The translations under genes were made by a program, and so were the position numbers. Shown here in pieces: positions 3,042-53,133 of a stretch of 62,151 nt of DNA. The stretch is from Rhodoferax sp. (lineage in GTDB: Bacteria > Pseudomonadota > Gammaproteobacteria > Burkholderiales > Burkholderiaceae_C), in contig JBIIVW010000001.1 in assembly GCA_044339205.1 (NCBI GenBank), forward strand, positions 1 through 62,151. Reading direction: 5' to 3'. Positions within the stretch are counted from its first letter, which is position 1. The number at the start of each line of letters is the position of its first letter. The notes below the pieces were generated by a model. That model was given only the letters and a program-made list of their open reading frames with translations, was not told where the DNA came from and made no database searches.

Positions 3042-3932
3042 TTAGGGCTTGGGGTTTAGCCACTTGAACAACGCGGCATCATCTTCATGCGCCAGGCCGG
3101 CTCGGGCGGCCCCATCGAACACATCGCGTACGCGCGCGCCTAGCGGGCCTTCAAAGCCGGCGGCCATTGCGGCCTGGATGGCCAGACGCGTGTCTTTTTG
3201 AAGCAGCGTCATGTGGGCGCGGGGCTCAAAGTCGCCAGCAATGGCGCGGCGCATCCGGTCTGATCCGATCCAGCTTTGCCCGCTGGACTGCTCGATCACA
3301 GCCAGCGTGGCCGCCAGATCGAGGCCCATTTTTTGGGCCATCACCATCACCTCAGCGGTCCCCACAAGGTTGATGCCTGCTGCCAGGTTGTTGACCAGCT
3401 TGGTGCGAGCCCCGTCGCCCACCCGCTCACTGATGCGGTGCACCTTGTTCGACAAAGCCTCGAACAGGGCTTGATGGCGCTCAAAAACCTCGTTGGCGCA
3501 GGCCACCATCAGGCTCATGCTGCCCTCGCGTGCCCGGACCGGGCCGCCCGACATGGGCGCATCCACCGTGTGCACGCCCAAGGAGGCCAGGCGCCGGGCC
3601 AAGTCTTCCACCTCATCCGGCGCCAAGGTGGGGCACAGCATCACCACCTGACCCGGTGACAGCGCGGGGGCGATTCCCTGCGGCCCGAACAGCACCGCCT
3701 CAGTCTGCTCGGCGTTCACCACACAGACGATGGTTACTACTGAATCAATAGCTGCCTGAGCATGATTGATGCCGGCTAGAGCCCCAAAAGACACCAAACC
3801 TTGTACTTTGGCCTCATCCAGATCCACCACCCGGACCGGCCAGCCCAGCGCCAGCAAACGGTGCGCCATGCCAGCACCCATATTGCCCACACCAATCACT
3901 GCAATCGGAAACCGGGGCGCAAGGGTAGTCAT
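3042..3932 (-). CDS. NAD(P)-dependent oxidoreductase, 3-hydroxyisobutyrate dehydrogenase family
   Basis: IGVGNMG Rossmann motif, DAPMSGG, KLVNN and KD motifs. The real start is ATG 3932, overlapping the rodA stop (ATGA). Confidence 0.88.
   Translation of the reverse strand: MTTLAPRFPIAVIGVGNMGAGMAHRLLALGWPVRVVDLDEAKVQGLVSFGALAGINHAQAAIDSVVTIVCVVNAEQTEAVLFGPQGIAPALSPGQVVMLCPTLAPDEVEDLARRLASLGVHTVDAPMSGGPVRAREGSMSLMVACANEVFERHQALFEALSNKVHRISERVGDGARTKLVNNLAAGINLVGTAEVMVMAQKMGLDLAATLAVIEQSSGQSWIGSDRMRRAIAGDFEPRAHMTLLQKDTRLAIQAAMAAGFEGPLGARVRDVFDGAARAGLAHEDDAALFKWLNPKP
3735..3798 (+). repeat. 64-bp motif copy, antisense within the oxidoreductase CDS
   Basis: tactactgaatcaatagc-N18-gccggctagagccc-caaaagacaccaaa. 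Confidence 0.85.
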
Positions 3933-5083
3933 GACTGCACCAAGCGTTTCGACTTGGAAATGGACATCAAAATCCCCAGCGCCAGGCCCAGCGTCACCAT
4001 GGCCGTACCGCCGTAGCTGATGAAGGGCAACGGCACGCCCACCACCGGCAAGATGCCACTGACCATGCCCATGTTCACAAAGGCGTAAGAGAAGAAGATC
4101 ATCGCCACGGCCCCGGCCAGCAGGCGGGAAAACACGGTGGGCGCCTCCAGCGCGATGACGATGGCGCGCAGCACCAGAAAAATAAACGCCGCAATCAGCA
4201 GCAGGTTGCCAAACAGGCCAAACTCTTCCGAGAAAGCCGCAAAGATGAAGTCGGTGGTGCGTTCGGGGATAAATTCCAGGTGGGTTTGCGTGCCCTGCAT
4301 GAAGCCCTTGCCCCAAAAGCCGCCCGAGCCAATGGCAATCATGCCCTGAATGATGTGGAATCCCTTGCCCAACGGGTCTTTGCCGGGGTCGAGCAAGGTG
4401 CAAATCCGCTGCTGCTGGTAGTCGTGCAGCACGGCCCAGCGCACCCCTTCAGCACACAACTCCGGCTCGAAAAACACCAACAGGCTCATGCCCACCAAGC
4501 CCAGCAGCACGGGTGGCACGATCAGTTTCCAGCTTAGGCCGGCAAAAAAGATCACCGACAAACCCGCCGCCAAGACCAGTAATGAGGTACCCAAATCGGG
4601 CTGCTTCATGATCAAGCCCACCGGCACCATCAGCAACACGCCCGCTACCAGAAAATCCAACGGGCGCAACTGACCCTCGCGCTTCTGGAACCACCAGGCA
4701 AGCATCAGGGGCATGGCAATCTTGAGAATTTCGCTGGGCTGGATGGTCACACCCACATTGAGCCAGCGCTGCGCGCCTTTTTTGGTGATGCCAAAGACTG
4801 CCACAGCCACCAGCAAGGCCACCCCCGCCACATACAAAGGCACGGCCAGTGCCATCAGGCGCTGAGGTGGAATCTGGGCCACCACGAACAGGATGAAGCC
4901 GGCAATCAGCATGTTGCGGCCATGGTCCTGAAACCGCGTGCCGTGGTCAAAACCCGACGAATACATGATCACCAGCCCCGCGCCAGCCAGCAAAAACACG
5001 GCAAAGGCCAACCAGCCGTCAAAACCGCGAAACCAGGGCGCGATGCGCTGCCACGGGTGAATACTTCCAAAATTTTTCGCCAT
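3929..5083 (-). CDS. rodA: Rod shape-determining protein RodA (SEDS glycosyltransferase)
   Basis: GAQRWL, QPSE, QPDLGT, PERTTDFIF and GVPLPFISYGG motifs. Confidence 0.95.
   Translation of the reverse strand: MAKNFGSIHPWQRIAPWFRGFDGWLAFAVFLLAGAGLVIMYSSGFDHGTRFQDHGRNMLIAGFILFVVAQIPPQRLMALAVPLYVAGVALLVAVAVFGITKKGAQRWLNVGVTIQPSEILKIAMPLMLAWWFQKREGQLRPLDFLVAGVLLMVPVGLIMKQPDLGTSLLVLAAGLSVIFFAGLSWKLIVPPVLLGLVGMSLLVFFEPELCAEGVRWAVLHDYQQQRICTLLDPGKDPLGKGFHIIQGMIAIGSGGFWGKGFMQGTQTHLEFIPERTTDFIFAAFSEEFGLFGNLLLIAAFIFLVLRAIVIALEAPTVFSRLLAGAVAMIFFSYAFVNMGMVSGILPVVGVPLPFISYGGTAMVTLGLALGILMSISKSKRLVQS
4598..4661 (-). repeat. Degenerate 64-bp motif copy within rodA
   Basis: gttggattttctggtagc-N18-gccggtgggcttga; the spacing is exact but the core is only partial. 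Confidence 0.4.
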
Positions 5084-5127
5084 TCCCGAATTATCCCGCG
5101 ACCAGCCCCGGACAGCGGGTCCGCCCT

Positions 5128-5760: not shown

Positions 5761-5802
5761 CGGCGGCAGCGAGACCAGAAATGTCGCCTTGACCGGGCCA
5801 AA

Positions 5803-7014: not shown

Positions 7015-7057
7015 GAATCACCCATCAAGTTAAGACTCTTTACTCTAGGTTGCTCTT

Positions 7058-7166: not shown

Positions 7167-9233
7167 ATGTTTTTATTGTTTGAAGAAGCCGGAAAATTCA
7201 TGGCCGGTCGGGTGCTGTCAGAAGCGGAGTCTTCTGTACAGGTGGAGTTGGACAGCGGCAAGCGGGTCAAGGTCAAGACGGCCAACATCTTGCTGAAATT
7301 TGAAAAACCGTCGCCAGCGCAGATGCTGCTGGAGGCGCAGGCTGTCAGCGACACCATCGAGCTGGAAATGGCTTGGGAATTTTCGCCTGAAGAGGAGTTC
7401 GGTTTTGCCGAGCTGGCGCGTGACTATTTCAGTGAGCAAGCCACGCTGGCTCAGCAGGCGGGCATGCTGGTGCGCCTGTTTGAAGCGCCGCACTACTTTC
7501 GCCGCGCCGGCAAAGGGCGGTTTCGCAAGGCCCCGGCCGACATCATCGCGCTGGCTCTGGCCGCCATTGAGAAAAAGAAACAAATTGCGCTGCAAACCGC
7601 GCAGTGGGTCAAGGACCTGAGCGAGGGTACTTGCCCGCAAGCCATCCGCGACCAGCTCTACAAAATCTTGTTCAAGCCCGACAAAAACGCGGCTGAATAC
7701 AAGGCCGTGGTGGAGGCCTCACGCGCCACGCACCTGGGGCCGCTGGAGCTGCTGATCCGGGCTGGTGCCATTGACTCGCCGTATCAGTTCCACTGGCGGC
7801 GCTTCTTACTGGAGAACTTTCCGAAGGGCACGGGATTTCCCAAGCTCGAAGCCCCGCTCATCAAGGACGAGCTGCCTTTGTCAACCGCGCGGGCGTTTTC
7901 GATTGACGACTCGGCCACCACCGAGATTGATGACGCGCTCTCGGTGCAGGGCCTGGGCACCGGCACGATTGTGCTGGGCATTCACATCGCCGCGCCGGGC
8001 TTGGCCGTGTTGCCAGGCAGCCCCATTGACCAAATGGGCCGCAACCGCCTCTCGACCGTGTACATGCCAGGCTACAAAGTCACCATGCTGCCCGACGATG
8101 TGGTGCAGGCCTACACCTTGATGGAAGGGCGCGATTGCCCGGCCGTGTCGCTGTATGTCACGCTGGATGAAGCCACACTGACCATCACCGGCAGCGAAAC
8201 CCGGCTGGAGCGGGTGCACATTGGCGCCAACTTGCGCCATGACCAGCTCGACGCCATCGTCACCACCGAGTGGCTGGAAGACCCGGCGTTTGAGCACCAA
8301 ATGGACCCCCAGCCGCTGATTAACAAGCGTCCACAGCTCTCATTTTTGCACCGCCTGGCCAAGGACCTGAAAGCCAAGCGCGAAGTGGTGCGCGGCAAGC
8401 CCGAGAACTTCAACCGCCCCGATTACAACTTCAAGCTGGTTGGCAACGACGGCGCCGAGCCTCAGGGCACCGAGCAAGTAAGCATCAGCGTGCGTCAGCG
8501 TGGCGCGCCGCTGGATTTGATCGTGTCCGAGGCCATGATTCTGGCCAACAGCACCTGGGGCGGCTGGATGGCCGAGCTGGGCGTGCCCGGCATTTACCGC
8601 AGTCAGGCCTCCATGTTGCCCGGCGTCAAGGTGCGCATGGGCACCCGGGCGCTGCCGCACGCGGGCTTGGGTGTCAAAAGCTACGCCTGGAGCACCTCGC
8701 CCCTGCGCCGCTACACCGATTTGGTCAACCAGTGGCAAATCATTGCCTGCGCGCGTCACGGCAACACGGCCGCGCTGGTGGCGCCGTTCAAGCCCAAAGA
8801 TGCGGACCTGTTTTCGATCATCTCCAGCTTTGATTCGGCTTACTTTGCTTACAACGATTACCAGCGCGCGATTGAGCGCTTCTGGATTCTCAAATACGTG
8901 CAGCAGCAGGGCATCACCGAGATTGAGGCCACCGTCTTTAAGGACAACATGGTGCGCGCTGATGAGTTGCCCCTGGTGCTGCCGGTCATGGGCGGGCAAA
9001 ACCTGCCACGCGGCGCGCGGGTGCGCGTGAAGCTGGGTGATATTGATGAAGTCACGCTGGACGTGGTGGGCACCGTGCTGGAGCGCCTGGACGCCCTGCC
9101 CGAAGCGACCGATGCCACGGACGATGCCGGTGATGAAGACGAGGTCTCCGCCGGGCCCATTGCGATCGCCGTGGACATGACCGAAGGCGAAGGGGCTGGC
9201 ACGCCGCCCGCTGGCGATAATACTGCCCCGTGA
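7167..9233 (+). CDS. RNB-domain (RNase II family) ribonuclease
   Basis: FSIDDSATTEIDDA catalytic motif, EAMILAN, TSPLRRYTDL. Confidence 0.9.
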   Translation: MFLLFEEAGKFMAGRVLSEAESSVQVELDSGKRVKVKTANILLKFEKPSPAQMLLEAQAVSDTIELEMAWEFSPEEEFGFAELARDYFSEQATLAQQAGMLVRLFEAPHYFRRAGKGRFRKAPADIIALALAAIEKKKQIALQTAQWVKDLSEGTCPQAIRDQLYKILFKPDKNAAEYKAVVEASRATHLGPLELLIRAGAIDSPYQFHWRRFLLENFPKGTGFPKLEAPLIKDELPLSTARAFSIDDSATTEIDDALSVQGLGTGTIVLGIHIAAPGLAVLPGSPIDQMGRNRLSTVYMPGYKVTMLPDDVVQAYTLMEGRDCPAVSLYVTLDEATLTITGSETRLERVHIGANLRHDQLDAIVTTEWLEDPAFEHQMDPQPLINKRPQLSFLHRLAKDLKAKREVVRGKPENFNRPDYNFKLVGNDGAEPQGTEQVSISVRQRGAPLDLIVSEAMILANSTWGGWMAELGVPGIYRSQASMLPGVKVRMGTRALPHAGLGVKSYAWSTSPLRRYTDLVNQWQIIACARHGNTAALVAPFKPKDADLFSIISSFDSAYFAYNDYQRAIERFWILKYVQQQGITEIEATVFKDNMVRADELPLVLPVMGGQNLPRGARVRVKLGDIDEVTLDVVGTVLERLDALPEATDATDDAGDEDEVSAGPIAIAVDMTEGEGAGTPPAGDNTAP
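8290..8353 (-). repeat. Degenerate 64-bp motif copy, antisense within the RNB gene
   Basis: cggtgcaaaaatgagagc-N18-agcggctgggggtc-catttggtgctcaa. Confidence 0.6.
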
Positions 9234-10087
9234 ACCTCCGGTCTTTCAGCCCCCTGCAACTGGCGCTTGGCGTCTCGGTGGCCGTGCACGCGGTGCTGCT
9301 GACGGTGCGTTTTGTCGACCCCGAGGCCTTCAACCGCGTGTTCGAGGACACGCCGCTGGAGGTGATTCTGGTCAACGCCCGCACCACCCAGCAGCCGGAA
9401 AAAGCCACGGCTATCGCCCAGGCGGCCATGGCCGGCGGGGGCGATGCAGAGCGTGGGCGGGCCACCAGCCCCTTGCCTCCGGCCCTGATCTCTACCACCG
9501 GGGACGACGTGCAAGACGAGGCGCAGCGCCAGCTGGAAACCCTGCAGGAACAGCAAAACCTGATGCTGGCCCAGATCAAAAGCCAGCTTGCCGCCCTGCC
9601 CCCTCGCGACCCCAAGCGGCCTACCCTGACGCCTGAGCAGGCCGAACGAGAGCAAAAGCGGCGCCAGTTGATCAAATTGCTGGCCGAAATCGAGCGGCGC
9701 ATCAACGAGGAAAATTCCCGGCCCAAAAAGCGCTACATCAGCCCGGCCACGCGCGAAGAAAGCTACGCCGTGTACTACGACAAGCTGCGCCGCAGCATTG
9801 AAGACAAGGGCACCGAGAACTTCCCCGAAGTCGCCGGCAAGAAGATGTATGGCGAGCTGACCATGGTGGTGACCGTCAATTTTGACGGGCGCATCGTGGC
9901 CACCGAAATCGTGCAAAGCTCCGGCAACCGCACGCTGGATCGCCGGGCGGAGGCCATTGTGCGCAACGCCGGGCCTTTTGGCCGCTTCAATGACGCCATG
10001 CGCCGCAAGGCCGACCAGATTGCCGTGGTATCCCGATTCAAATTCACCCGCGACGAAACGCTGGAAACCCAACTCACCGCCAAATGA
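9230..10087 (+). CDS. TonB family protein (TonB C-terminal domain)
   Basis: N-terminal TM helix with SVAVH, C-terminal SSGNRTLDRRA motif; conserved position upstream of aroE. Confidence 0.85.
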   Translation: MNLRSFSPLQLALGVSVAVHAVLLTVRFVDPEAFNRVFEDTPLEVILVNARTTQQPEKATAIAQAAMAGGGDAERGRATSPLPPALISTTGDDVQDEAQRQLETLQEQQNLMLAQIKSQLAALPPRDPKRPTLTPEQAEREQKRRQLIKLLAEIERRINEENSRPKKRYISPATREESYAVYYDKLRRSIEDKGTENFPEVAGKKMYGELTMVVTVNFDGRIVATEIVQSSGNRTLDRRAEAIVRNAGPFGRFNDAMRRKADQIAVVSRFKFTRDETLETQLTAK

Positions 10088-10923
10088 CCCCATCGACTGA
10101 CCTCTATTGCGTGATGGGCAACCCCGTGGCGCACAGCAAATCGCCCTGGATTCACGCGCGTTTTGCAGAACTGACCGGCCAGAGCCTGCGGTACGAGAAA
10201 CGCCACATTGCGCTGGACAGCTTTGCAAGCGCCGTATATGCCTTTCGGGCCGAGGGCGGTCTGGGCTGCAACATCACCGTACCCTTCAAGTTTGAAGCTG
10301 CGGCTGTGGCTAGCCAGACCAGCGAGCGCGCCCTGCTGGCCCAGGCGTCGAACACCTTGCGTTTTGAAGGCGACGCCATCCTGGCCGACAACACCGACGG
10401 CATCGGCCTGGTCAACGACATTCAGCGCAACGCCGGCGTTGACTTGTGGGGCCAGCGCGTGCTGCTCATTGGCGCGGGCGGGGCGGCGGCGGGTGTTTTG
10501 GGGCCCTTGCTGCAAGCGCAACCCGCCCATATCACCGTGACCAACCGCACGCGGAGCAAAGCCACCGAGCTGGTCAACCGCCATGCGGCACTGGCTTTGC
10601 TACACAATACAGAGCTACTAACCCAAGAGATATGCCGGCTAGAGGGTGATTTTGATGTGATTATCAATGCCACAGCCAGTAGCCTGCAGGGCGGGTCTGT
10701 GCCCGTGCCGGCCAGCGTCTTGCGACCCGGCGCCCTGGCCTACGACATGATGTACGGCCCCGCCGCCGCTGAATTCATGACTTGGGCCCATGAGCACAGC
10801 GCCAGCCCGCGCGACGGCCTGGGCATGCTGGTGGAACAGGCCGCCGAGGCTTTTCTGATCTGGCGCGGTGTGCGCCCGCCCTCGCTGCAAGTGCTGGCCG
10901 AATTGCGCTCCAGCCTGAAATAG
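10084..10923 (+). CDS. aroE: Shikimate dehydrogenase
   Basis: GNPVAHSKSP, NITVPFK, NTDG, GAGGAA and GLGMLVEQA motifs. Confidence 0.96.
   Translation: MTPSTDLYCVMGNPVAHSKSPWIHARFAELTGQSLRYEKRHIALDSFASAVYAFRAEGGLGCNITVPFKFEAAAVASQTSERALLAQASNTLRFEGDAILADNTDGIGLVNDIQRNAGVDLWGQRVLLIGAGGAAAGVLGPLLQAQPAHITVTNRTRSKATELVNRHAALALLHNTELLTQEICRLEGDFDVIINATASSLQGGSVPVPASVLRPGALAYDMMYGPAAAEFMTWAHEHSASPRDGLGMLVEQAAEAFLIWRGVRPPSLQVLAELRSSLK
10598..10661 (+). repeat. 64-bp motif copy, sense within aroE
   Basis: tgctacacaatacagagc-N18-gccggctagagggt-gattttgatgtgat. Confidence 0.85.
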
Positions 10924-11881: not shown

Positions 11882-14668
11882 TCAGCAGGGCGAATTTTTG
11901 AATTTGTTTCCTATTAGTACACACCCTTGCTCCACTAGCCGCAATGTACCCAAAGCCCCCAAATCAATGATCAGGCCCAAGCCCAAATTGGTCGTAGACC
12001 CCGTCGAAACGCTGGTGTTTGCCGCACCCCAGGATTGACTCATCACGTTGCCAATGTAGGTTCTTGCATAGATCGTTTCGCTGGTGCTCAGACCAATGGC
12101 CATGGTGTTGACAGCACCCATGCTGACGCTGATGTCAATATCCCCGCTATGGGGTTCCGTCACAGAGCCAATCACCGTGGTGGCTTCGGTGTTAACACCC
12201 ACCGTGCCCGTCAAGACTTCCGCAGTTTTCACATTGATTTTGACGTTGCCTTGCACGGGTGCGTCCACCACGCCAATCAGGGTGGTGGCTTTTGTATGCG
12301 CACCCAGGGCAAAGGTCACCAGTTCGCCTGTGACAACCGACATGTTCAGGTTGCCACTCACCACCCCCTGGCTACCCAGCACTGCCGAGCGGCTGGTAGC
12401 CGTCGTGTCATAACCGATACTCACAGCAATGGTATTGCCAGCGCTTTGATTGACGTTTGCAGCGCCTCCCACGCGGCCTTGAAGCACTCCCGCCTCGATC
12501 ACGCTGGTACTGTTGTCGCCAATGGCAGCAGCCACCGCACCAAGAGTCAGGTTGGCAGTCATGCTCAATGGTCCGGTGACGCTTGCATTTGCGGCAAGCA
12601 CACCGGCGCGCACCGTCGCTGCTGAGCTGTTGCCCAGCGCGGCGGCAATGGGCGACAGGGCCGAAATGTTCGAATAATTGACTGTTTGGCCAACCTTACC
12701 GTCGAGGTTGCCGATTTCGATCAAGGTGTGCGTGTCATTACCGACCGCCGCACCCACCATGCCTGTAACGTTGTTGACCATGGTCACACCGCCACCGGCG
12801 CTGCCGCCCAGAGATGCCAGGCGTTGGCTGGCGCTACTTGCGTTGCCAATGGCCACATTGACGGCACCGTTGATGGTGTTGGTGAGTTTGATGTTGCCGC
12901 CAAAGGCCTGGTTTTTATCCAGCGTACCCACAGAGCTCAGCGTTTGTGAGGCTCGCGAATTTGCACCAATGGCACCATTGAGTGCGCCACTGAGCACCAC
13001 CCGGTCATCAAGGTCGAGAAGAGTTTTGATGCCGGCTCCACCCCCTACGCTGGCCAACTGCTGTTGTGCATTGGCCTTCAAGCCAATGGCGACATTGGCG
13101 ACACCCAACGCAACAACTTGATTGCTGACGCGCTCCAGGCTGAGCCTTGTCTCAAGTGGTGCGCCAGCTGTTTGTTGCAGCAAATTGAACACTTTGGTGG
13201 TTTTTGTCCGGGCCTCGTCCCCTGCGCCGGGATCAGCCGAGGTGTCAACGCCGGCCTGAATCGTGGTGGAGAGGTCAGGCACATTCATTTTGTCTTTGGC
13301 TGCAGCAACTGCGGCTGTCAGCTCGGACAACAATTGGGCTTTTTGCACATCTGTCTGTGCCGATGCGGCTCTGAACTGTTTCTCCTGCTTGTCGGCTGTG
13401 TCGATTTTGGCCTGGATTTTTTCGTTCTCCGCGTCCCATTTCACTCGATTTCGAATGGAGTCAGGTGTTTCTGCCTCAACCTTTTTATGTAAATCATGCC
13501 AAGAACAGTGGGCAACGCAATAATCGTCATAGGCCGGATGCTGTCCATCATGTATTGATTTTTCGGCCTTGGCCAGTTTGAGAGCTTGGGCGTTTTGATC
13601 AGCTTTTTTAATCAGCTCAACTTTCACGCGATCAAGCCCACCGCCAACCGCGCTGGCCACCTTCTGGTTGATGCCATCGAGCGCATCTTTGACCTTGCCA
13701 AGCGCACCATCAATGGTCTGGCTGACCCCAGCCAAGCCCTGCTTGACCCGGTCATCAACTTGCGCGTTGGGGTCAGTGATCTTTTTCATGCGGTCATTGA
13801 TTGTTTTGTCAATATCAGTGCTGAAGTTTTTGGTGGCTGTGCTGATCTCCCTCAGAGGCACATCAGCTACCCCCGGCAGGTCAACACCCCGGGTGACGAT
13901 GGACTTCGTCAGCGCCACAATGTTGTTCATGGCATCGTCGAGCCGGGTGTCAATGTTGCCCAAAATCATGTCCATTTGCACTTGGCGGGGGTCCTCCGTT
14001 AGCGGTGCGTTGACATCTGGCATGGCCGGCAACGCGTTGAGCGCTGTGTTGATGCGCGTATTGATGTCACGCATTTGGGGGTTGATGTCTTGGGTGTCGG
14101 GTTGATCAGGCAGGCCGGGTGGGCGAACTGTTACGTCGTTGATCCGAGCATTCACGTCTTTGACAACGTCCAAAACATGCAGGCCAGGTATTTTGACTTC
14201 GGGCAGTTGGGTGGCCACGTTTGAGGTGTCGGGCACCTTGATATCAGGCCTCGCCAAACCGGGCACAGCAACGTCTGGCATATCCATGTCAGGTACAACA
14301 ATGCCCTGCAGCCTCAAGGCAAGGGCTGGCTGGCCGTTGGATGTCTGTGGAGCAGGGTTGAGCCACTGATTGATGGAGGGCGAGTTGCTTGCAGAGCCCG
14401 CCGGGGAGGCCATGCGAGTCTGCCATTGAGAGGCAGTGGCGGCGCTCGTGGCGTCCCCGCCGTCGGCGTCAGCCATGTTTTGCCACCGGTTGAGTTGGTC
14501 TTTTTTGCCGGGGTCGTCGATGACGGTGCGCACTGCGGTCTCCAGCGGTTGCCGGCCCAGAAGTTCTTCAGCCACGTCAGCCTGAGCGGGCGGCAGCTGG
14601 CCTGCGCTTAGCAAGGCAAAGGCCAGCGAAGAGCTGGCCGCGCGAGAAAATTGCCTGTATTTATGCAT
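11882..14668 (-). CDS. Large secreted protein (928 aa): Pro/Asp-rich linker, helical/coiled-coil middle, C-terminal beta-repeat domain
   Basis: Signal peptide ending PAQA-D; about 11 repeats of the type G-x-x-N-x-A-I-G-x-x-S-x-A-x-x-x-(L/I)-(G/A)-x-V. No family recognised. Confidence 0.75.
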   Translation of the reverse strand: MHKYRQFSRAASSSLAFALLSAGQLPPAQADVAEELLGRQPLETAVRTVIDDPGKKDQLNRWQNMADADGGDATSAATASQWQTRMASPAGSASNSPSINQWLNPAPQTSNGQPALALRLQGIVVPDMDMPDVAVPGLARPDIKVPDTSNVATQLPEVKIPGLHVLDVVKDVNARINDVTVRPPGLPDQPDTQDINPQMRDINTRINTALNALPAMPDVNAPLTEDPRQVQMDMILGNIDTRLDDAMNNIVALTKSIVTRGVDLPGVADVPLREISTATKNFSTDIDKTINDRMKKITDPNAQVDDRVKQGLAGVSQTIDGALGKVKDALDGINQKVASAVGGGLDRVKVELIKKADQNAQALKLAKAEKSIHDGQHPAYDDYCVAHCSWHDLHKKVEAETPDSIRNRVKWDAENEKIQAKIDTADKQEKQFRAASAQTDVQKAQLLSELTAAVAAAKDKMNVPDLSTTIQAGVDTSADPGAGDEARTKTTKVFNLLQQTAGAPLETRLSLERVSNQVVALGVANVAIGLKANAQQQLASVGGGAGIKTLLDLDDRVVLSGALNGAIGANSRASQTLSSVGTLDKNQAFGGNIKLTNTINGAVNVAIGNASSASQRLASLGGSAGGGVTMVNNVTGMVGAAVGNDTHTLIEIGNLDGKVGQTVNYSNISALSPIAAALGNSSAATVRAGVLAANASVTGPLSMTANLTLGAVAAAIGDNSTSVIEAGVLQGRVGGAANVNQSAGNTIAVSIGYDTTATSRSAVLGSQGVVSGNLNMSVVTGELVTFALGAHTKATTLIGVVDAPVQGNVKINVKTAEVLTGTVGVNTEATTVIGSVTEPHSGDIDISVSMGAVNTMAIGLSTSETIYARTYIGNVMSQSWGAANTSVSTGSTTNLGLGLIIDLGALGTLRLVEQGCVLIGNKFKNSPC

Positions 14669-14692
14669 CAGAAGCCGCCAATGGCGGTCACA

Positions 14693-15877
14693 TCACTTGG
14701 CTTGCCCAGCCCCTGCAGGCTCGTTCGCCTTGGGCTTGGCAGGCACTCCGTCAGGTACTAATTGAAGGGCGGGGGAATTGTTGGGGCTTGAAGTCGCCAC
14801 GGCCAGCATCACCGGGGCCAACAGTTTCTCGTAAAGCGCCCAGTCGATATCAGGCCCGCCCAGCAGATCGTGCTTGGTGCGGTATTGCATGATGGCCGAG
14901 CGCATGGCCCTGGAATGCTTGCCTTGCGCATCGGTGGGCGCTGCAGTTTTGCCCAACATGCCGAGTTCGCGCAGACGCAGTGCCACACTGTCTAGCCGCT
15001 GCTCAGCCGACAAGCTGTCAAAGGCTTCACGCGCCAATTTGACGCTGGGGTCGTCGTTGCCCAGTTCGGCCAGACATTCCCAGTAAGGAAGGTCGTAGAG
15101 TTTTCCAAACAACTCAATGGCACCCACTTCCACCAGGCTTCGCATACTTTGGCTGATGGCCTGGGCACGGTTCTCACCCAAGTTCATGTTCACACCCAAT
15201 TTGGCAAGGCCCAGCGTGTACTCAGTGGAGTTGGAACGTTTTTCAACGGCCATGGTATTGGCTGAAAACACACCCGGCAAGAGTTGGTAGTTGTTGACCA
15301 GGCCCACGGCCATGTCCAGGGAAATGCTCGACAAACTAAGCGAATTTGAGCTTGAAGCGCCTGCGCCCAAGATTTGATCAGTGATACGCGCCGCGTTGGC
15401 AGAGTAGCCGGCCTGCTTGCTGTAAGGGTCGCTATTGATTTGGGTGACCGCACCGCGAATAAAAAAATCAGGAATGCGCAGCGTCGACTTTCGGGGGTGG
15501 CTATTTTGCAGTGCGACAATATCGGGGGTAGAGCGGTCAAAGGCCACATAACGAATGCCCGCGCTTTGTTTGGACATCTCGGAAATGGCTGAAATGAGCA
15601 TGTCCCGCGTGCCGTAGCCCGCCGTGCCGCGTGCCTCGGAGTAGTCAGGCAGCGTGGCTGCGGTGACATAAATGGGCTGCACCTTGTTGACCAGCATCAT
15701 CTGGTCAAAGCACGCGAGGCCTGGCGTGAAGGAGGTCACAGTGCGCACGGGGTAACGCGTGGACAGCTTGGTGGCTACATCGTTTGGCGGCTCAACCCTG
15801 TGGTGGGTGGCGCAGCCGCTGATGATGGCCAGGGACAACATGGCCCCACTGGTTTGAATGAACCGCTTGATAATCAT
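14693..15877 (-). CDS. CsgG/HfaB-like outer-membrane lipoprotein with probable C-terminal peptidoglycan-binding domain
   Basis: Lipobox ISGC; LACFD, RDMLISA, PDFFIRGAVTQ, ISLDM and SMRSLVEVGAIELFG resemble CsgG/HfaB; the segment SRAMRSAIMQYR..L..G is PG_binding_1-like. Start moved to ATG 15877. Confidence 0.65.
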   Translation of the reverse strand: MIIKRFIQTSGAMLSLAIISGCATHHRVEPPNDVATKLSTRYPVRTVTSFTPGLACFDQMMLVNKVQPIYVTAATLPDYSEARGTAGYGTRDMLISAISEMSKQSAGIRYVAFDRSTPDIVALQNSHPRKSTLRIPDFFIRGAVTQINSDPYSKQAGYSANAARITDQILGAGASSSNSLSLSSISLDMAVGLVNNYQLLPGVFSANTMAVEKRSNSTEYTLGLAKLGVNMNLGENRAQAISQSMRSLVEVGAIELFGKLYDLPYWECLAELGNDDPSVKLAREAFDSLSAEQRLDSVALRLRELGMLGKTAAPTDAQGKHSRAMRSAIMQYRTKHDLLGGPDIDWALYEKLLAPVMLAVATSSPNNSPALQLVPDGVPAKPKANEPAGAGQAK

Positions 15878-15903
15878 GTTTGGCAATGCTTGGGTAAAGA
15901 GGA

Positions 15904-16236
15904 CTACTGGCAACGATTGCCCACATTGATGATGTCGCCCACGATCACCACTTGAATATTGGTGCTAATGGCGGTTGAGGTGGTTTGCACGTTGCCCACC
16001 GACACCGAGCCGCAGTCCACTCGCGACACCTGCTGGGCCAGCTCTTCGGGCGTTTTGCCAAGAAGTCCTGACCGGATTTTTTGGTCGAAGTAATCCTGGT
16101 TGTACAGCAGTGTTTGGGATTTGACGCTGAGAATGCGCCGGTTGGCACTGTCAGGAATCAGACCGGCGCTGTGGGCGGCCTGGGTGAACAGTGTGGTGAG
16201 CAAAGCACCCGCCAGCGCCTGTTTGAAGGTATTCAT
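15904..16236 (-). CDS. Small secreted protein (110 aa) with a C-terminal Cys-bracketed beta segment
   Basis: ATG 16236, signal peptide ending AHS-A; C-terminus DCGSVSVGNVQ...IQVVIVGDIINVGNRCQ. Confidence 0.7.
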   Translation of the reverse strand: MNTFKQALAGALLTTLFTQAAHSAGLIPDSANRRILSVKSQTLLYNQDYFDQKIRSGLLGKTPEELAQQVSRVDCGSVSVGNVQTTSTAISTNIQVVIVGDIINVGNRCQ

Positions 16237-16252
16237 CTCGCAGGCCGATGTC

Positions 16253-16591
16253 TTATTTGTTTCGCTCACAGGCTGTTTTGTGCCCGATTGTGCCAATGGA
16301 TTGGTCGGCGCAGGTGCCTTGACCGGTGGCAGCGTTCATGGCACCGTCAGCGACTATTTTTTCGTTAGTCAACTCCGAGATCTTGCCCGATTCAACGGAG
16401 CCAATGTTTTGCGTCGTGCTGGAGTCCAATCCAGTAGCAGCATTCATCACTCCGGTCGCCAAAATGTCTATGTTGTCCATTTTTCCGATAGTTGGGCCGT
16501 CTTGTGCTGCCTGGGCATAGGCCGCAGTGCTCATGCTCAACGGTACTGCGCAGATTACGGCCAAGGCCAGGGTGTTGATCAAACGTTTCAT
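16253..16591 (-). CDS. Small secreted repeat protein (112 aa), candidate fibre subunit
   Basis: AAGGAG RBS, signal peptide ending AYA-Q, two repeats GVMNAATGLDSSTTQNIGSV and GAMNAATGQGTCADQSIGTI. Confidence 0.75.
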   Translation of the reverse strand: MKRLINTLALAVICAVPLSMSTAAYAQAAQDGPTIGKMDNIDILATGVMNAATGLDSSTTQNIGSVESGKISELTNEKIVADGAMNAATGQGTCADQSIGTIGHKTACERNK

Positions 16592-16612
16592 GAATTACTC
16601 CTTGTTAAAAAC

Positions 16613-16933
16613 TTAAAAAAGCAGATCGCTGATGCCATCTGCCGGTACCTCAAACAAAATGAACTGGTTGGATTCCCGGTTCATCACCTCAAGCTCCAGC
16701 TCGTTGCCCAGCTTGCGGATGTAAATAATCACCACATTCATGACTTCTCCGGTGTCGAGCCAGGCCACTTTGAGCTCTTGCCCCGCTGCAATACCACCCG
16801 GATGAAGCGCTTCCAAAATAGTGATGGCTCGCCCGGTGTGCACCTCAGAGCCATCCTGGGCATGAGCGCCTGAGCACAGAAAACCAAGACCCACCACAAG
16901 TGAAAGCGCAAATTTTTGGAAGATGGTGTTCAC
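16613..16933 (-). CDS. Small secreted hypothetical protein (106 aa)
   Basis: GTG 16933 with an AAGGAG RBS at 16943-16948; signal peptide ending AHA-Q. Confidence 0.7.
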   Translation of the reverse strand: MNTIFQKFALSLVVGLGFLCSGAHAQDGSEVHTGRAITILEALHPGGIAAGQELKVAWLDTGEVMNVVIIYIRKLGNELELEVMNRESNQFILFEVPADGISDLLF

Positions 16934-21488: not shown

Positions 21489-21529
21489 CCGGCGTATTCA
21501 TTGCCTTCAAACAGTAACAATAAGAGCGA
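21466..21529 (-). repeat. 64-bp motif copy spanning the stop of the cytidylyltransferase gene and the ruvC 5' region
   Basis: Perfect core gccggctagaggcc (21480-21493, minus); its CTAG provides the TAG stop. The left arm is degenerate. Confidence 0.75.
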
Positions 21530-22090
21530 ATGAGAGTTTTAGGCATTGACCCCGGTCTGCGCACCACCGGCTTTGGCGTGATTGATGTGGACGGCTCCAA
21601 CTTGGCCTATGTGGCCAGCGGCACCATCAGCACCACCCACATCGAGAAGGATTACCTCCCCGCGCGTCTGAAAGTCCTGTTTGACGGTATCCGCGAGGTG
21701 GTGGGGCGCTATGAGCCCGATTGCGCCTCGGTGGAGATCGTGTTCGTCAACGTCAACCCCCAATCCACCCTGCTGCTGGGCCAGGCGCGCGGCGCAGCCG
21801 TATCCGCGCTGGTGTTTTCCGACCTGCCGGTGGCCGAATACACGGCGCTGCAAATGAAGCAAGCCGTGGTGGGGTACGGGCGCGCCGACAAAACCCAGAT
21901 TCAGGAGATGGTGCGCCGGCTGCTGACCCTGCCCGGCCTGCCGGGGTCGGATGCTGCCGACGCGCTGGGGCTGGCCATCACCCACGCCCATGCGGCCAAC
22001 TCCATTGCCCGACTGATGCAGGCCAAGGGCGTTGGTGGCGCGCAAAACCAGACCCAAAAAGCGGCTTACAAGGCGGGGCGGAGTCGCTGA
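21530..22090 (+). CDS. ruvC: Crossover junction endodeoxyribonuclease RuvC
   Basis: [24 protein letters not shown] and DAADAL motifs. Confidence 0.96.
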
Positions 22091-35892: not shown

Positions 35893-37444
35893 GGGATGCT
35901 CCCGAGTGCGCATCTGAGGCATCCCACTGGCCCAAGGCCTCGCGCAGGTGCACCAAATCCGAGAACACCAATCGCTGGCCGGCCACTTCCTGGTAGTCCT
36001 CATGGCCCTTGCCAGCAATCAACAGCACATCCTGAGGTGCTGCTGCTGCAAGTGCGCGGACAAGGGCCTGTGCACGGTCTGGCTCCACCACGACCTGCGC
36101 GTGACCGCTCAGGCCCAGCAAAATCTGGCTGATGATGAGTTCGGGCTTCTCGTTGCGCGGGTTGTCGCTGGTCACCACCACCCAGTCGGCATGGTGGGCG
36201 GCCACGGCACCCATCAGCGGTCGCTTGGCCGCATCGCGGTTGCCGCCGCAGCCAAACACGCACCAGAGTTGCCCGCCTCGTTGTGCTGCCAGCGGACGCA
36301 ACGCCTTCAGCGCCTTGGCCAAGGCATCGGGCGTGTGGGCATAGTCCACCGCCGCCAGAGGCTGACCAGCACCACCCACAAACTCCATGCGACCGGGCAC
36401 CGGCGTCAAATCGGCACAAGACGCCACGGCAGCGGCCAGTGGCACGCCCAGCACACGCAAGGTGGCGATCACGCCCAGCAGGTTGGCGATGTTATAGGCA
36501 CCAATCAGGTGGGTTTGGAGCACGGGGGCCTCACCCAATACGCCCTGCTCCCGCACGGTAAAACGCATGCCCTGAACACCATGGCTGATGTCACATGCCT
36601 GCAAGCGAGCGGCCTGACTACAAGAGACCGTCCACACATCGCGCACCTTGTCCACCAGAGATTCGGCAAGGGCCTCGCCCTGGGCATCGTCCACATTGAT
36701 GACAGCAGCCTGCAGCCCGGCCCACTGAAACAGCCGGGCCTTGGCTTGCCAATAAGCGGCCATGGTGCCGTGGTAGTCCAGGTGATCCTGGGTGAAATTG
36801 GTGAAGATCGCGGTGTGGATATGGGTTCCGTCCAGGCGGTGTTCCTCGATCCCGATAGAGGACACCTCAATGGCACAGGCCTGCACACCTTCAATCAAAA
36901 ATCGCCTGAAGGTCTGCTGAAGCAATACCGGGTCCGGGGTGGTCAGGCCGGTGGCCACGCAGGCGCCCAACGCAGAGCCCAGCCCTTTGGCGACACCGGG
37001 CGCTGGCGGGTGGCCAATACCCAAAGTACCCACCAGCCCGCAGGAAATCGGCTTGTCTTGCTTCAAATAAGTGAGTGCCTGGGCCAGCCACCACGCGGTG
37101 GAGGTTTTTCCGTTGGTTCCAGTCACTGCCAGCACCTGCAGCTGCTCACTGGGGTGCCCGAAAAATGCCGCTGCAATCGGGCCGCTGGCGGCCTTGAGTT
37201 GCTCGTAGGAGGCAACCGACGGGTCGTTGAACGCATGGGCGTCCAGACCCTTGCGCTCTACCAGGCACGCGGTAGCGCCGCGAGCCAGTGCCGATGCCAC
37301 ATGCACTCTGGCGTCGGTTGCAGCGCCAGGCCAGGCAATGAAACCGTCACCCGGCTGCACCTTGCGGCTGTCGGCGTGAAGCGTACCGGTGACACGAGCG
37401 CGCAGCCACTGAGCGGCCTCCAGAGGGGTAGTCAATTCAAGCAT
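35885..37444 (-). CDS. murE: UDP-MurNAc-dipeptide-meso-DAP ligase
   Basis: TGTNGKTS, TTPD, DYAHTPD, DNPR and AGKGHE motifs. Confidence 0.96.
   Translation of the reverse strand: MLELTTPLEAAQWLRARVTGTLHADSRKVQPGDGFIAWPGAATDARVHVASALARGATACLVERKGLDAHAFNDPSVASYEQLKAASGPIAAAFFGHPSEQLQVLAVTGTNGKTSTAWWLAQALTYLKQDKPISCGLVGTLGIGHPPAPGVAKGLGSALGACVATGLTTPDPVLLQQTFRRFLIEGVQACAIEVSSIGIEEHRLDGTHIHTAIFTNFTQDHLDYHGTMAAYWQAKARLFQWAGLQAAVINVDDAQGEALAESLVDKVRDVWTVSCSQAARLQACDISHGVQGMRFTVREQGVLGEAPVLQTHLIGAYNIANLLGVIATLRVLGVPLAAAVASCADLTPVPGRMEFVGGAGQPLAAVDYAHTPDALAKALKALRPLAAQRGGQLWCVFGCGGNRDAAKRPLMGAVAAHHADWVVVTSDNPRNEKPELIISQILLGLSGHAQVVVEPDRAQALVRALAAAAPQDVLLIAGKGHEDYQEVAGQRLVFSDLVHLREALGQWDASDAHSGASHA
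37014..37077 (-). repeat. Degenerate 64-bp motif copy, sense within murE
   Basis: cactcacttatttgaagc-N18-gcgggctggtgggt-actttgggtattgg. Confidence 0.6.
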
Positions 37445-47144: not shown

Positions 47145-48326
47145 TCATTTACGCATGACTACTAAACCTTTTAAGTATTCGCCTTCGGGGAAATTCAGCG
47201 TCATCGGATGGTCCGGGGCGCCGCCCAAACGTTCGGTGATGAATCCATCGACCCCGGCATCGCTGCCAGCAGAGGCCACGATCTTGTGGAACAAGTCCGG
47301 GCTGATGCCGCCCGAGCAGGAGTAGGTGAACAACACACCGCCGGGCGCCAGCAACTTGAAGGCCAGCCGGTTGATGTCCTTGTAGGCGCGGGCAGCGCGC
47401 TCGGCATGCGTGATGGTGGGGGCAAACTTCGGCGGATCCAGAACAATGGCGTCAAACACCCGACCCTGCGAGCCAAACTGGCGCAGCGAAGCATTGACAT
47501 CGGCGTCCATCCAGGTCGTGCGACTGGTGTCAAACCCGTTCAGGGCCACATTGGCGGCAGCCTTTTCCAGCGCAGGGCCCGAGGAATCAATCGAGGTGAC
47601 ATGGCTTGCGCCGCCCTGCAAAGCCGCCACCGTGAAACCGCCGGTGTAGCAAAAGCAGTTCAGCACCTGGTCAAACTTCAAGCGGCGGGTGAGGGCGGAA
47701 AATTTCTGGCGACTGTCTCGCTGGTCAAGGTAAAAACCGGTCTTGTGGCCGGTCGCGATATTGACGCCCAGGTGCCAGTCGTGCTCCCGCAACACCAACT
47801 CCACCGCGCCCTCCCCCCGCAACCAGCCCGTGACCTCAGGCAGGCCCTCCAGGGCCCGGCCACTGGCGTCAGAACGCTCATACAGGTTGGTGAGTCCGGT
47901 GGCGGCCAGCAGGGCGTCAGTCAGCACGTCTTTCCAGCGCTCGGCACCGGCTGAGAGAAACTGGGCCACCAGCGTGTCGCCGTAACGATCCACGATCAGG
48001 CCGGGCAAACCGTCCGACTCACCATGCACCAGCCTCAAACTGTCGCTATTGATATCAAAACGGCCTCTAGCCGACACAGCCACTGCACAGGCAGCTACAA
48101 AAAAAGAAGCATCAATTCGCTGAGCCTCATCAAAGCTCCACACCCGGGCCCGTATCTTGGAGGCCGGGCTGAACGCAGCCCACGCCAGAAAGCCCCCTTC
48201 ATGGGACTCCACCCGAACGGTTTCACCGGACTCGGCGCCCCCGGTAGCGATGGCGGATTCAAAAATCCAGGGGTGGTGGCGAGAGAGTGAGCGGTCTTTG
48301 CCCGGTTTGAGTCGAATCGTTTTCAT
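47145..48326 (-). CDS. rlmI: 23S rRNA m5C1962 methyltransferase (RlmI family)
   Basis: HPWIF, HKTGFYLDQR, LDPPKF, SCSG and EGEYLKG motifs. Confidence 0.88.
   Translation of the reverse strand: MKTIRLKPGKDRSLSRHHPWIFESAIATGGAESGETVRVESHEGGFLAWAAFSPASKIRARVWSFDEAQRIDASFFVAACAVAVSARGRFDINSDSLRLVHGESDGLPGLIVDRYGDTLVAQFLSAGAERWKDVLTDALLAATGLTNLYERSDASGRALEGLPEVTGWLRGEGAVELVLREHDWHLGVNIATGHKTGFYLDQRDSRQKFSALTRRLKFDQVLNCFCYTGGFTVAALQGGASHVTSIDSSGPALEKAAANVALNGFDTSRTTWMDADVNASLRQFGSQGRVFDAIVLDPPKFAPTITHAERAARAYKDINRLAFKLLAPGGVLFTYSCSGGISPDLFHKIVASAGSDAGVDGFITERLGGAPDHPMTLNFPEGEYLKGLVVMRK
48048..48111 (-). repeat. 64-bp motif copy, sense within rlmI
   Basis: tgcttctttttttgtagc-N18-gtcggctagaggcc-gttttgatatcaat. 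Confidence 0.85.
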
Positions 48327-49771: not shown

Positions 49772-49779
49772 GGCCAGGC

Positions 49780-50466
49780 CTACCTCAGGCGCGACAGTGC
49801 GGCACCTGCCAACTCGGCAATGCGCTGCAGAAAATCAGTGGCCATCGCGCTGTTGAAGCGTTCGGCATCCGGCGAGGCAAGCACCAACATGCCATAGGCG
49901 GGCGTGGCACTGCCGCTTGGTCCCAAGCGCAGCGGCAAAATCGCCAGCGACACAGCAGCCTGCGGATCGGGCAACCAGCTGATCGCCTCAAAACCCGTGT
50001 TGAGGCCACAAAACGGCGCCATCAACGACGAAGCAAACAGCTTGGCGTCATCGCTCACGCCGTTGGCAAAGTCGGCATGGGCAAAGGCGGGCATCACGTC
50101 CCAAACCTTGATGCCTACCTGCGGAACTGCAAATTGCTCGGCAATCTCCCGCGCCATCTGGGTGGGTAGCGTCCACGGGTCGCTCACCATGAACAAGGTG
50201 CGCGCCCAGCGCAGGAGCTTGTCGGACAACACGACGTTGTCGTTGCCATTGCGGATCATGTCCATGATGCGCAGCTCCAGCGCCTTGATTTTCTCGCGCA
50301 GCATCACCGCCTGACGCTCCTGCAGGCTCACGGCCCGGGTGCTGTGCGGGCTGGTGAACTGCACGGCCGCCAGCAGCTCGGCGTGGCGCTCAAAGAAATC
50401 AGGCGTATTGGCCAGGTAATTGGCAATATCGTCTTCGGTGATCGGGTTGGTAAAGGAGGTGGTCAT
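49780..50466 (-). CDS. DUF484 family protein
   Basis: YL..PDFF..H..LL and VSLQERQ motifs; lies between dapF and xerC. Confidence 0.88.
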
Positions 50467-51338
50467 AGGGTGTCAGGTAAATCGATTTCGCCGCAAAACA
50501 CGGAGGTGGCCGGGCCGGTCATCATCACAGGCGATGCTGGAGAGGCCCAGGAAATGCTCAACACGCCGCCGCGGGTCTGAACCTCCACGGCATTGTCCAG
50601 CAAGCCCAGCCGGATGCCGGCCACCACGGCCGCGCAAGCACCCGTGCCGCAGGCCAGGGTTTCACCCGCGCCGCGCTCATAGACCCGCAGGCGGATGTGG
50701 TTGCGATCCACGACCTGCATGAAGCCCGCGTTGACCCGGCGGGGGAAACAGGGGTGGTGTTCGATCAGCGGGCCCTGCAAGCCTACCGGTGCGGCGTCCA
50801 GGTCATCCACCACCTGCACGGCATGGGGGTTACCCATGGACACCACTGATACTAAAACAGGAGCATCTGAGGCAATAGATACGCCGGCTAGAGGCCATTT
50901 TTGCCATAAACCAGTCGTTTGAGGCACCAAACCGGCATCAACAAAGGGAATTTGGGACAACTCAAACACGGGCAGACCCATGTTCACGGTCACGCGACCA
51001 TCTGCCGTGAGCCGGGGTTCGATCACGCCAGCCAGCGTCTGCACGCGGATCGTGTCCTGGGTGCTCAGGCCCTGGTCGCGCACAAAGCGGGCAAAGCAGC
51101 GCGCACCGTTGCCGCATTGCTCCACCTCGGTGCCATCGGCGTTGTGGATCACGTATTCAAAGTCAATGCCGGGTCCGGGCGAGGGCCGCACCGTCAGAAT
51201 CTGATCGGCCCCGACGCCAAAGCGGCGGTCGGCCAGCAAGCGGTAGTGCGCGGGGGTCAGGGCGTAGCGCGTGGCAGTCTCATCCAGCACGACAAAGTCG
51301 TTGCCGGCGCCCTGCATTTTGGTAAACGGAATTCGCAT
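50463..51338 (-). CDS. dapF: Diaminopimelate epimerase
   Basis: [21 protein letters not shown] and [13 protein letters not shown] motifs; start ATG 51338. Confidence 0.96.
50847..50910 (+). repeat. 64-bp motif copy, antisense within dapF
   Basis: tgatactaaaacaggagc-N18-gccggctagaggcc-atttttgccataaa. Confidence 0.88.
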
Positions 51339-51444
51339 GCCATGAATTATCCCCGTATCTACAGATATCTCCGGCGCGACACTTCGCCCGGCCGAGAAAG
51401 AAAACGACCCCAAAGCGCCCCCGAATTCGGTGCAAAATCTGAAA

Positions 51445-53133
51445 ATGCCCAGACTTAACCAACTCCTTCACCCCGCTCGTACGCCCGCCCCCACCCGACC
51501 TGCCGCCACCGTGCTGCTGCTGCGCGATGGCGCCGCCGGGCTGGAGGTGCTGATGACGCGCCGCGCCATGACGGCCAGCTTTGCACCGGGCGCCTACGTC
51601 TTTCCGGGCGGCGGCGTGGACGCGCTGGATGCCCAGAGCCACGCCCAGGCCAGCCGGCGCAGCACGCAGAGCGAGCTGCACCTGACCCAGGCGATTGCGG
51701 CCATTCGGGAAAGTTTTGAAGAACTGGGCGTGCTGCTGGCCCGCCACGCAGACGGCAGATTAGCCAGCCAGCACGACATTGCGGCATTCAGCCGCAGTGC
51801 GCCCTTTGTGAGCCAATGCCAGGCGCGGGGACTGACCCTGGCTGCAGCCGAGGTCTTTGTGCTGGCCCACTGGATCACCGACCGTGACCTGCCGCGCCGC
51901 TTTGACGTCCCTTTTTTGGTGGCCCGCATGCCCGACGGCCAAACCCCCGTGGCCGACGAAGCCGAGCAGTTTGAGCCGGTGTGGGTGCGCCCGGCCGACG
52001 CGCTGGCGCGCCATGCTGCGGGCGAGTTTTTCATCATCTTTCCGACCATTCGCACGCTGGAGCGCCTGGTGGACCATGCCACCGTGGACGCCGTGCTGCA
52101 GTTGTGCGCTGCCACCGAGCAGCCCCTGTGGACCAGTTGCCCCCGTGCCGGCATGCTGGCCGGCCGCGAAGCGCGCTACATGGAACATGAACAGCCTTAC
52201 GGCGAACTGGCGCTGGTGTGCCCGGACGGGCAAATCGAACACGCGCTGGACTGGCAGACCGAACAGCCCGTGGCGTTATTGAAAAACGTCATGCGACTGA
52301 CCGCCCCCAACCCCGGCGTGATGACTGGCCCCGGCACCAACAGCTACCTGGTGGGCGACCCCGACACGGGCTATATCGCCATCGACCCCGGTCCGGCCGA
52401 CCCCGACCACATCGACAAACTGTGGCGCGCCGCAGGCGGCGACATCCGCATGATTGTGTGCACCCACTCGCACGCCGACCACTCGCCTGGCGCCCGACCC
52501 CTGCAAATGCTGTGCGAGCAGCACGGCAAGGCGCCGCCGCCCATTCTGGGCCTGCCAAGCGCGCCCACTGCCCGCACGGCCAGCGAGTTCACCCCGGACA
52601 GGTCACTCCTGAATAATGAGCTACTCACCCTTACAAGCTGCCGGCTAGAGGCGGATTTGGCATTAAATTCAAGCCATACGCTGCAAGTGATCCACACCCC
52701 CGGCCATGCGGCCAACCACCTGTGCCTGGTGTTGCTGGAAGACGGCCTGCTGTTCAGTGGCGACCACATTTTGAACGGCAGCACCACCGTGATTGACCCG
52801 CCGGATGGCGACATGACCGCCTACCTGGACTCGCTGGACCGGCTGGCCCAAGCCTGCGCCGAGCAGCACATCGACTTCATTTTGCCGGCCCATGGCTACG
52901 TGATGGGCGGCTATGAAGGAGAAGCCGCTGGAGCCATCGCCCACCTCAAGGCGCACCGCCTGAAGCGCGAAGCCAAGATCATCAAGGTCATGCAGGCACA
53001 GCCCCAGGGCACGCTGGACTCCTGGGTCCAGAGCGCCTATGACGATGTGCCGCCGCGCCTGTGGCCAGTGGCCAAGCGCTCGCTGATGGCGCATGTGGCG
53101 CGCATTGAAACCGAGATGCTGCTGGGGTCCTAG
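51445..53133 (+). CDS. NUDIX hydrolase / MBL-fold metallohydrolase fusion
   Basis: [13 protein letters not shown] Nudix box; THSHADH, HTPGH, SGDH and PAHG MBL motifs. Confidence 0.9.
52604..52667 (+). repeat. 64-bp motif copy, sense within the NUDIX-MBL gene
   Basis: cactcctgaataatgagc-N18-gccggctagaggcg-gatttggcattaaa. Confidence 0.85.

Follow-up and report, generated by a model that had tools for sequence, protein, structure and literature searches.

A 66-70 bp DNA motif written over codons and gene ends in a Rhodoferax-like genome and its Comamonadaceae relatives, likely kept by selection on the DNA

A motif of 66-70 bp with fixed internal spacing recurs throughout a 3.86-Mb Rhodoferax-like genome, in which an ungapped 66-bp matrix finds 485 copies at a score of at least 16, against a single one in the reversed genome used as control. 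Ten of these copies lie in the window studied here, a stretch of 62,151 nucleotides at the start of contig JBIIVW010000001.1 (assembly GCA_044339205.1, Rhodoferax sp.), and an eleventh, worn copy sits in murE. The copies mostly overlay existing codons instead of being inserted among them, and selection on the DNA itself likely keeps the motif, as a sequence-only reading of the window had proposed. We put at about one in two the chance that the motif is a site on double-stranded DNA which a clade-specific protein complex binds and wraps, with a role in chromosome structure or topology.

The signal spans about -43 to +26 relative to the core, with edges that fade. Beyond it, the 485 copies have a weak A/T tail that is periodic, recurring at +33 to +36 and near +43. 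A GCTAT-N7-ATAGC dyad makes up the left arm, the central dyad surrounds 7 bases and varies between species, and the right arm is a GCC-W5-GGC-like dyad. As read from the matrix, the three dyad centres are 23 and 20 bases apart, or about two helical turns, and the A/T tracts follow a roughly 10.5-bp phase, that is, a helical one. These dyads are features of the consensus and not pairing within each copy: long-range compensatory pairing was absent among the 485 copies, the 8 window copies that were folded had no hairpin or fold in common, and three copies in the 46-54 kb region returned nothing from Rfam at E<=5. The sole Rfam match in the window was the class A RNase P RNA at 56495-56875, and the motif copies were unmatched. 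A hairpin or RNA element was rejected on these grounds. A scan of positions 1-400 found no promoter or terminator consensus.

Within the window, the motif is read in sense and antisense, and twice it ends a gene. The copy at 142-207 (+ strand, score 57.3) provides through its left arm the TAG (157-159) that stops mpl, an open reading frame (ORF) matching the Mpl structures 3mvn and 3hn7. The copy at 21465-21530 (- strand, 45.3), between a cytidylyltransferase gene (Pfam CTP_transf_1) and the gene after it, provides the stop TAG at 21486-21488 as the reverse complement of the core CTA. The RNB gene (7167-9233, +) contains the copy at 8289-8354 (-, 27.6; residues 375-396), which is antisense with its core TAG altered to CAG, and the site is present at the same place in many relatives. 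Both gene ends and the altered core had been described from the sequence and are as described. The sense reading C-R-L-E occurs in aroE (10084-10923, +; copy 10597-10662, +, 55.3; residues 172-193), and the sense reading A-R-G occurs in murD (31701-33290, -; copy 32900-32965, -, 31.4; residues 109-131) and in rlmI (47145-48326, -; copy 48047-48112, -, 50.0; residues 72-94). Antisense copies lie in a gene assigned by Pfam as 3-hydroxyisobutyrate-dehydrogenase-like (the oxidoreductase, 3042-3932, -; copy 3734-3799, +, 50.9; reading L-A-G at residues of about 45-67) and in dapF (50463-51338, -; copy 50846-50911, +, 63.1; residues 143-165). The remaining copies are in murG (29366-30451, -; copy 29417-29482, -, 47.0; residues 324-345), in a gene with a NUDIX/metallo-beta-lactamase fold (MBL; 51430-53133, +; copy 52603-52668, +, 52.3; residues 392-413) and, worn to a score of 2.1 in this genome and hence additional to the ten above threshold, in murE (35885-37444, -; copy 37013-37078, -; residues 123-144).

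All nine peptide words claimed from the sequence alone are in the window, in the genes and frames named (aroE, murG, MBL, murE, murD, rlmI, oxidoreductase, dapF and RNB). The accompanying claim of four frames stands for those words; genome-wide, the motif uses all six. Based on gene calls from our own hexamer model, of which the short ones are uncertain, the 207 coding copies divide into 79 in sense frame S1, 82 in antisense frame A1, 18 in S0, 12 in A2, 9 in S2 and 7 in A0, so that two frames hold 161 copies while the strands are used 106 times in sense and 101 times in antisense. When only interior sites in genes of at least 150 codons are counted, the corresponding numbers are 56 (S1), 61 (A1), 15 (S0), 5 (A2), 8 (S2) and 6 (A0). 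Stop codons are dodged, as had been proposed: the stop triplet is kept by none of the 9 S2 and none of the 7 A0 coding copies, a partly tautological result, compared with 78 of 141 and 90 of 141 intergenic copies for the same two frames. Stops alone do not fix frame use, because A2, though open in 29% of intergenic copies, accounts for 12 coding copies, and A1, open in 25%, for 82.

Evidence that selection acts on the DNA and not on a peptide comes from constraint at synonymous sites and from changes of sequence dialect that force amino-acid replacements. Third codon positions have an A+T content of 0.43-0.68 in the sites, 0.18-0.25 elsewhere in the genes and 0.19-0.27 in the same codons of genomes without the motif. 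In comparison with the close relative G332, fourfold-degenerate codons ending in A or T diverge by 0.17 inside 21 coding sites and by 0.40 outside them (p=5e-6), and the substitution rate falls as the information of the matrix column rises (rho -0.49, p=3.5e-5). In murG, all 66 bases of the site are identical and divergence elsewhere is 10%; this site stands at the conserved end of the distribution. Over the 445 kb and 91 loci compared with G332, 75 of 77 sites are retained in one direction and 68 of 68 in the other, figures biased upward because most of these loci were picked for holding matches.

Most coding sites add no length relative to outgroups that lack the motif, as the alignments of orthologues proposed with the sequence-only reading make clear. 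In murG, where the motif had been thought to overlay a normal protein segment, the net length difference is zero: there is no indel in any of 77 named orthologues, 34 of which carry the site, and the site is gapless in 29 orthologues and against E. coli. It covers predicted helices at residues 318-327 and 330-342 (model pLDDT 89), so that in the model the MurG site sits on well-predicted ancestral helices. The same had been thought of the oxidoreductase, which aligns without a gap at the site to 3cky, 5je8 and 4dll, three of the four solved homologues among those listed. Relative to basal members of the family and to other families, respectively, the net difference is 0 and +2 residues for aroE (+5 against three solved AroE chains), -2 and +4 for murD and +3 and +11 for dapF; rlmI is 2 residues shorter than E. 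coli 3c0k, rnb is 7 residues longer than in five basal family genomes, and MBL carriers vary by 0, -4 or -8. A separate site in murE, present in G197 alone among 39 orthologues, also has zero indel. Across the window sites tested, 0 to 11 residues were gained, mostly 0 to 5, with loop gains of 3-11 in dapF, rnb and MBL. The suggestion that the dapF and MBL copies are loop expansions thus survives in part: a few codons were gained, not the whole element, and the dapF site falls on a strand-loop-strand in the predicted model. Aligned in register, carriers and basal orthologues have an identity of 0.20-0.59 at the sites, against a random-register null mean of 0.07-0.09, and five of six tested sites fall in segments that are variable among outgroups too. 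We infer that new sites form by substitution together with small in-frame loop indels, at places where the old peptide already half-matches.

Position and reading frame of the sites are common to many genera of Comamonadaceae, the outcome of another check proposed from the sequence. The same position and frame recur in 26 of 55 orthologues for murG, 13 of 24 for aroE, 17 of 31 for dapF, 17 of 40 for murD, 9 of 13 for rlmI and 12 of 13 for MBL; for murE, 13 of 39 orthologues have a clear site at the place of the worn copy in this genome. The nearest MurG, at 94%, is from Rhodoferax sp. On a tree of 41 genomes, carriers form one clade within the Comamonadaceae, with no motif in the basal branch or in other families. 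With one genome per genus, 29 of 160 family genomes are positive, meaning at least 20 matches to a pattern that misses about half of the copies and at least three times the control. Elsewhere in the order, 147 genomes from other families have at most 12 pattern matches each; two of them from the same family (G228 and G320) have 12, against 1 in the control. Within the genus, match counts fall to the control level in four congeners of 98-100% completeness, which occupy three separate places on the tree, and three of the four retain worn sites; the motif was lost at least three times. As a side observation on the mur genes, murE and murF seem to be fused in one ORF in G016 (L097), and G106 has a similarly long alignment row.

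The clade also contains several dialects. The central part is GCGCTT..AAGCGC in G014, GCCCTT..AAGGGC in G007, GAGCAG..CTGGGC in G087 and AGGCAA..ACGCCGGC in this genome, G332 and G197, and the two dyad halves often switch together between species. The branch nearest to this genome among those sampled, G009, holds the older form, and the distant G197 has the new one. Here the new 4-mer is found in 363 of 485 copies, and a further 11 old-type copies were found. Orthologous coding sites follow the dialect of their host, in different frames: aroE, dapF, MBL and murD have GCCGGC in this genome, and the congeners G009, G003, G007, G008 and G014 are mostly of the AAGGGC type. Such a change alters residues, as in the replacement of G by R in AroE and in the MBL protein.

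Only 207 of the 485 copies (43%) lie wholly in genes, compared with 81% expected by chance; a further 137 run across gene ends, and 141 lie between genes. Copies concentrate near the 3' ends of genes. Convergent junctions bear the motif in 19.4% of cases, tandem junctions in 7.0% and divergent ones in 4.3%, and 53 of 78 tandem intergenic copies are closer to the upstream stop. Density is 1.1 per 100 kb at a GC content of 0.52 and 21-26 at 0.64-0.66, despite the motif being rich in A/T. Spacing is more even than random, with 11 pairs within 500 bp where 24 +/- 4 are expected, and just 1 of 229 neighbouring pairs falls within 100 bp. On the complete chromosome of the congener G014, 100 matches (52 forward, 48 reverse) are distributed all round with no gap, and there is neither the strand bias nor the regional restriction expected of a Chi, KOPS or matS-type signal, which are replichore-polar or terminus-restricted. 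Contig ends are not enriched (13 copies against 19.9 expected), and in contigs from 4 metagenome runs no copy was skipped at any of the 15 joints listed out of 107, a result made uninformative by the mixture of organisms.

Mobile DNA carries the motif too. Of 40 pattern matches on viral contigs, 33 prove to be true copies, and in 14 longer viral loci the copies often come after the stop codon of antirepressor/Rha or RecT genes; these cases are not independent, because those genes share C-terminal regions. Among seven phage antirepressor-like proteins (L229, L230, L232, L234, L235, L236 and L239), the N-terminal domains vary (P22_AR_N, Rha, Bro-N), and six have in common an unannotated C-terminal domain of about 100 residues, with a near-consensus motif copy after each gene. 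In L239 and L241, phage genes for the terminase large subunit have copies within their C-terminal tail. The motif also matches three plasmid records from Comamonadaceae, and INPHARED phages gave no match to a single 66-base query.

Use of both strands and all six frames, together with the lack of pairing covariation and of a shared hairpin, argues that the motif is read as double-stranded DNA. If it is a binding and wrapping site, each copy would have been written into codons and gene ends that were already there, and a factor of two-fold symmetry would read the double-stranded DNA and bend or wrap it, perhaps in supercoiling or nucleoid organization. The factor would be active in one clade, would shift in specificity and would sometimes be lost; a shift in specificity would drag hundreds of sites, and the amino acids they encode, to a new dialect.

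Several observations weigh against binding and wrapping, or against parts of the evidence from which we argue for it. The matrix holds 47 bits of information, where arithmetic gives about 14 as enough to locate 485 sites, and the excess would suit drive or copying as well as a single binder. Fourfold divergence, when not conditioned on base, is no lower inside sites than outside (33/194, or 0.17, versus 312/1580, or 0.20; p=0.39), and amino-acid divergence is higher inside (80/462, or 0.17, versus 208/2792, or 0.07). In G197, dapF is 18 and 22 residues longer and xerC 17 residues longer than in outgroups, the gain being a consensus-like peptide, and one intergenic copy in the present genome goes with a gain of 80 bp in length. 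For murG, aroE and murF, in-register identity reaches no more than about the 99th percentile of its null, and the enrichment at convergent junctions may be avoidance of promoters. The four congeners without the motif imply that it is dispensable. No binding protein was identified, and the single lead, a gene resembling those of REP-associated tyrosine transposases (RAYT; REP, repetitive extragenic palindrome), failed.

We think it unlikely, if the least so of the rival explanations, that the motif is a long signal for DNA uptake or biased recombination that spread by molecular drive, with dialects that follow the receptor; better-matching fragments would enter cells or recombine more often. 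The comparison is with the uptake signal sequences (USS) of Pasteurellaceae and the DNA uptake sequences (DUS) of Neisseriaceae, which are under-represented in genes, biased in frame, free of strand bias, more evenly spaced than random and absent from newly acquired genes (PMC2817400). Our motif has the same signature, including scarcity in low-GC DNA; like USS and DUS, it arises in place, uses preferred frames and both strands, and has dialects resembling those of DUS (PMC2817400, PMC3630211). That the tested sites mostly fall in variable segments would also fit, as would the copies carried by comEC in G014 (two) and G197 (one). Lateral replacement of alleles would likewise explain one junction at which the allele with the motif has a patchy distribution on the tree: three relatives, whose two genes overlap, lack the intergenic copy at G000:C324:1348, the one with the 80-bp difference, and a fourth relative has it. 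Across the loci compared there (L350/L419, L422-L424), three genomes have a stop/start overlap of 4 bases and two non-sister genomes a spacer of 80-100 bp with the motif, and the left half of the copy in this genome is of the old dialect. USS and DUS, however, are 10-30 bp long; our motif is unrelated to them in sequence, has more than twice the length of a 30-bp USS and a dyad symmetry of its own, and lacks their inverted terminator pairs. Lineages that lost the motif retain comEC (G005, G006), dprA and ComP_DUS-family pilins (G002, G006, G010), and competence genes do not separate carriers from losers. Neither comEC nor the pilin was found in the present genome, which is uninformative because both fall at assembly gaps. 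A more far-reaching reading, which spans uptake and chromosome structure and which we offer tentatively, is that Comamonadaceae evolved independently a third and far longer genome-wide self-signature, recognized by a multi-subunit receptor for DNA uptake or chromosome wrapping; as the specificity of this receptor shifted, 22 codons would have been recast in each of some 150-200 proteins in a genome, the same dialect would have converged in unrelated genera, and their temperate phages would have adopted it.

Still less probable, in our view, is a domesticated REP-like repeat copied by a nuclease or recombinase, which would insert between genes, replace patches of coding sequence and then be filtered at the protein level. 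There are true resemblances to REP, to their mosaic and paired forms (BIME and REPIN) with RAYT, and to Rickettsia palindromic elements (RPE): hundreds of dispersed copies, positions near the 3' ends of genes, TAG stops, which the ends of GTAG-tagged REPs often supply (PMC3733652), and translation of some copies (PMC3733652, PMC6006769). In the common dialect, a dyad of 6-9 bp flanks 7 nucleotides, with a (G/C)TAG foot on one strand, and the G197 and 80-bp length gains described above would be expected of such copying. In 17 of 34 genomes, moreover, a single-copy RAYT-like gene has at its 3' end a motif copy scoring at least 18. This gene, a Y1 nuclease of RAYT/TIRYT type at L152:1462-2151 (G000:C189:3383-4072), is bounded by short terminal repeats of its own, and in those 17 of the 34 genomes scored the motif copy is between its stop and the right repeat. 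REP and RPE, though, are inserting hairpins, often paired or clustered (PMC3733652, PMC6006769), and REP and REPIN are almost all extragenic and in inverted doublets, whereas our copies are old and single, mostly add no length and are 43% coding. Recent spread by copying was rejected: the best identity to the consensus is 55/66, and near-identical pairs (58-64/66) share their flanks. RAYT occurs in 155 of 161 family genomes, among them genomes without the motif, and its own repeats are of a different, GGGG(T/A)CA type. As a lead to the mobilizer or reader, RAYT did not discriminate; five sequences had hinted at shared residues in two same-dialect genomes, and an unresolved tree of 34 sequences grouped neither these nor the dialects in general.

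Selection on the encoded peptide or on RNA structure would account for the concentration of coding copies in two frames and for their clustering near the 3' ends of genes. We consider it very improbable and largely refuted, given the use of both strands and six frames, the constraint on synonymous sites where amino acids change faster, and the failure to find an Rfam match or shared fold. An RPE-like in-frame insert, which would lengthen every host protein by about 22 codons and for which the G197 dapF and xerC gains would speak, is the least credible of all and is refuted for the sites of this window, which lack the insert of about 21 residues at every site by which the sequence-only reading would have known it, gain the few residues listed above and include the MurG site on ancestral helices.

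Parts of the motif have been described before. Tong, Schliekelman and Mrazek (2017; PMC5217627) list spaced pairs of pentamers in Acidovorax, Polaromonas, Rhodoferax and Variovorax, uncharacterised and, in the accessible portion of the paper, without a function, with stress on the intergenic copies. We recognize these as pieces of the present motif: GCTTAT(N5)AAGCG of Acidovorax ebreus is its central dyad, TAATA(N24)GCTAG of Rhodoferax ferrireducens and GCTAT(N8)TAGCA of Variovorax agree with its spacing, and frequent convergent placement is common to both. That portion of the paper gives the parts without the assembled 66-70 bp unit, the overlay on codons, the conserved positions, the dialects, the losses or the selection. 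No paper on the motif as a whole surfaced in a literature search whose coverage of subscription journals was thin. HIP1 of cyanobacteria is similar in being clade-wide, conserved in and between ORFs by selection, variable between lineages and proposed to act in chromosome structure (PMC5861425, PMC4390886). It differs as an 8-bp perfect palindrome tied to methyltransferases (PMC5861425, PMC4390886), whereas the dialect words of our motif are not all palindromic and, outside the motif, have no genome-wide excess (GCCGGC at 0.89 and AGCGCT at 0.83 of expected); a methylation or HIP-like model was rejected on this count, with no search for methyltransferases made.

Two further observations concern the surrounding DNA. 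A 10.9-kb stretch around window positions 11882-16843 contains no motif copy; that interval has a 928-residue low-complexity ORF, a lipoprotein ORF that looks CsgG/HfaB-like, and small ORFs on the minus strand, and the stretch was possibly acquired. Genome-wide, CTCGAG is strongly avoided (0.23 of expected), and its avoidance points to a restriction system, either resident or past.

The DNA signals known to overprint genes have lengths of 8-30 bases. At about 70 bases, the present motif is a much longer variant of such genome-wide overprinted signals, and it shapes a stretch of 22 residues in essential proteins such as MurG, MurD, DapF and AroE. Several dialects, one of them common to non-sister lineages, and at least three losses within the genus are natural experiments through which comparative genomics and pull-down may find the reader. 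For the proteins of these Comamonadaceae, the consequence is that amino-acid signatures can stem from selection at the level of DNA.

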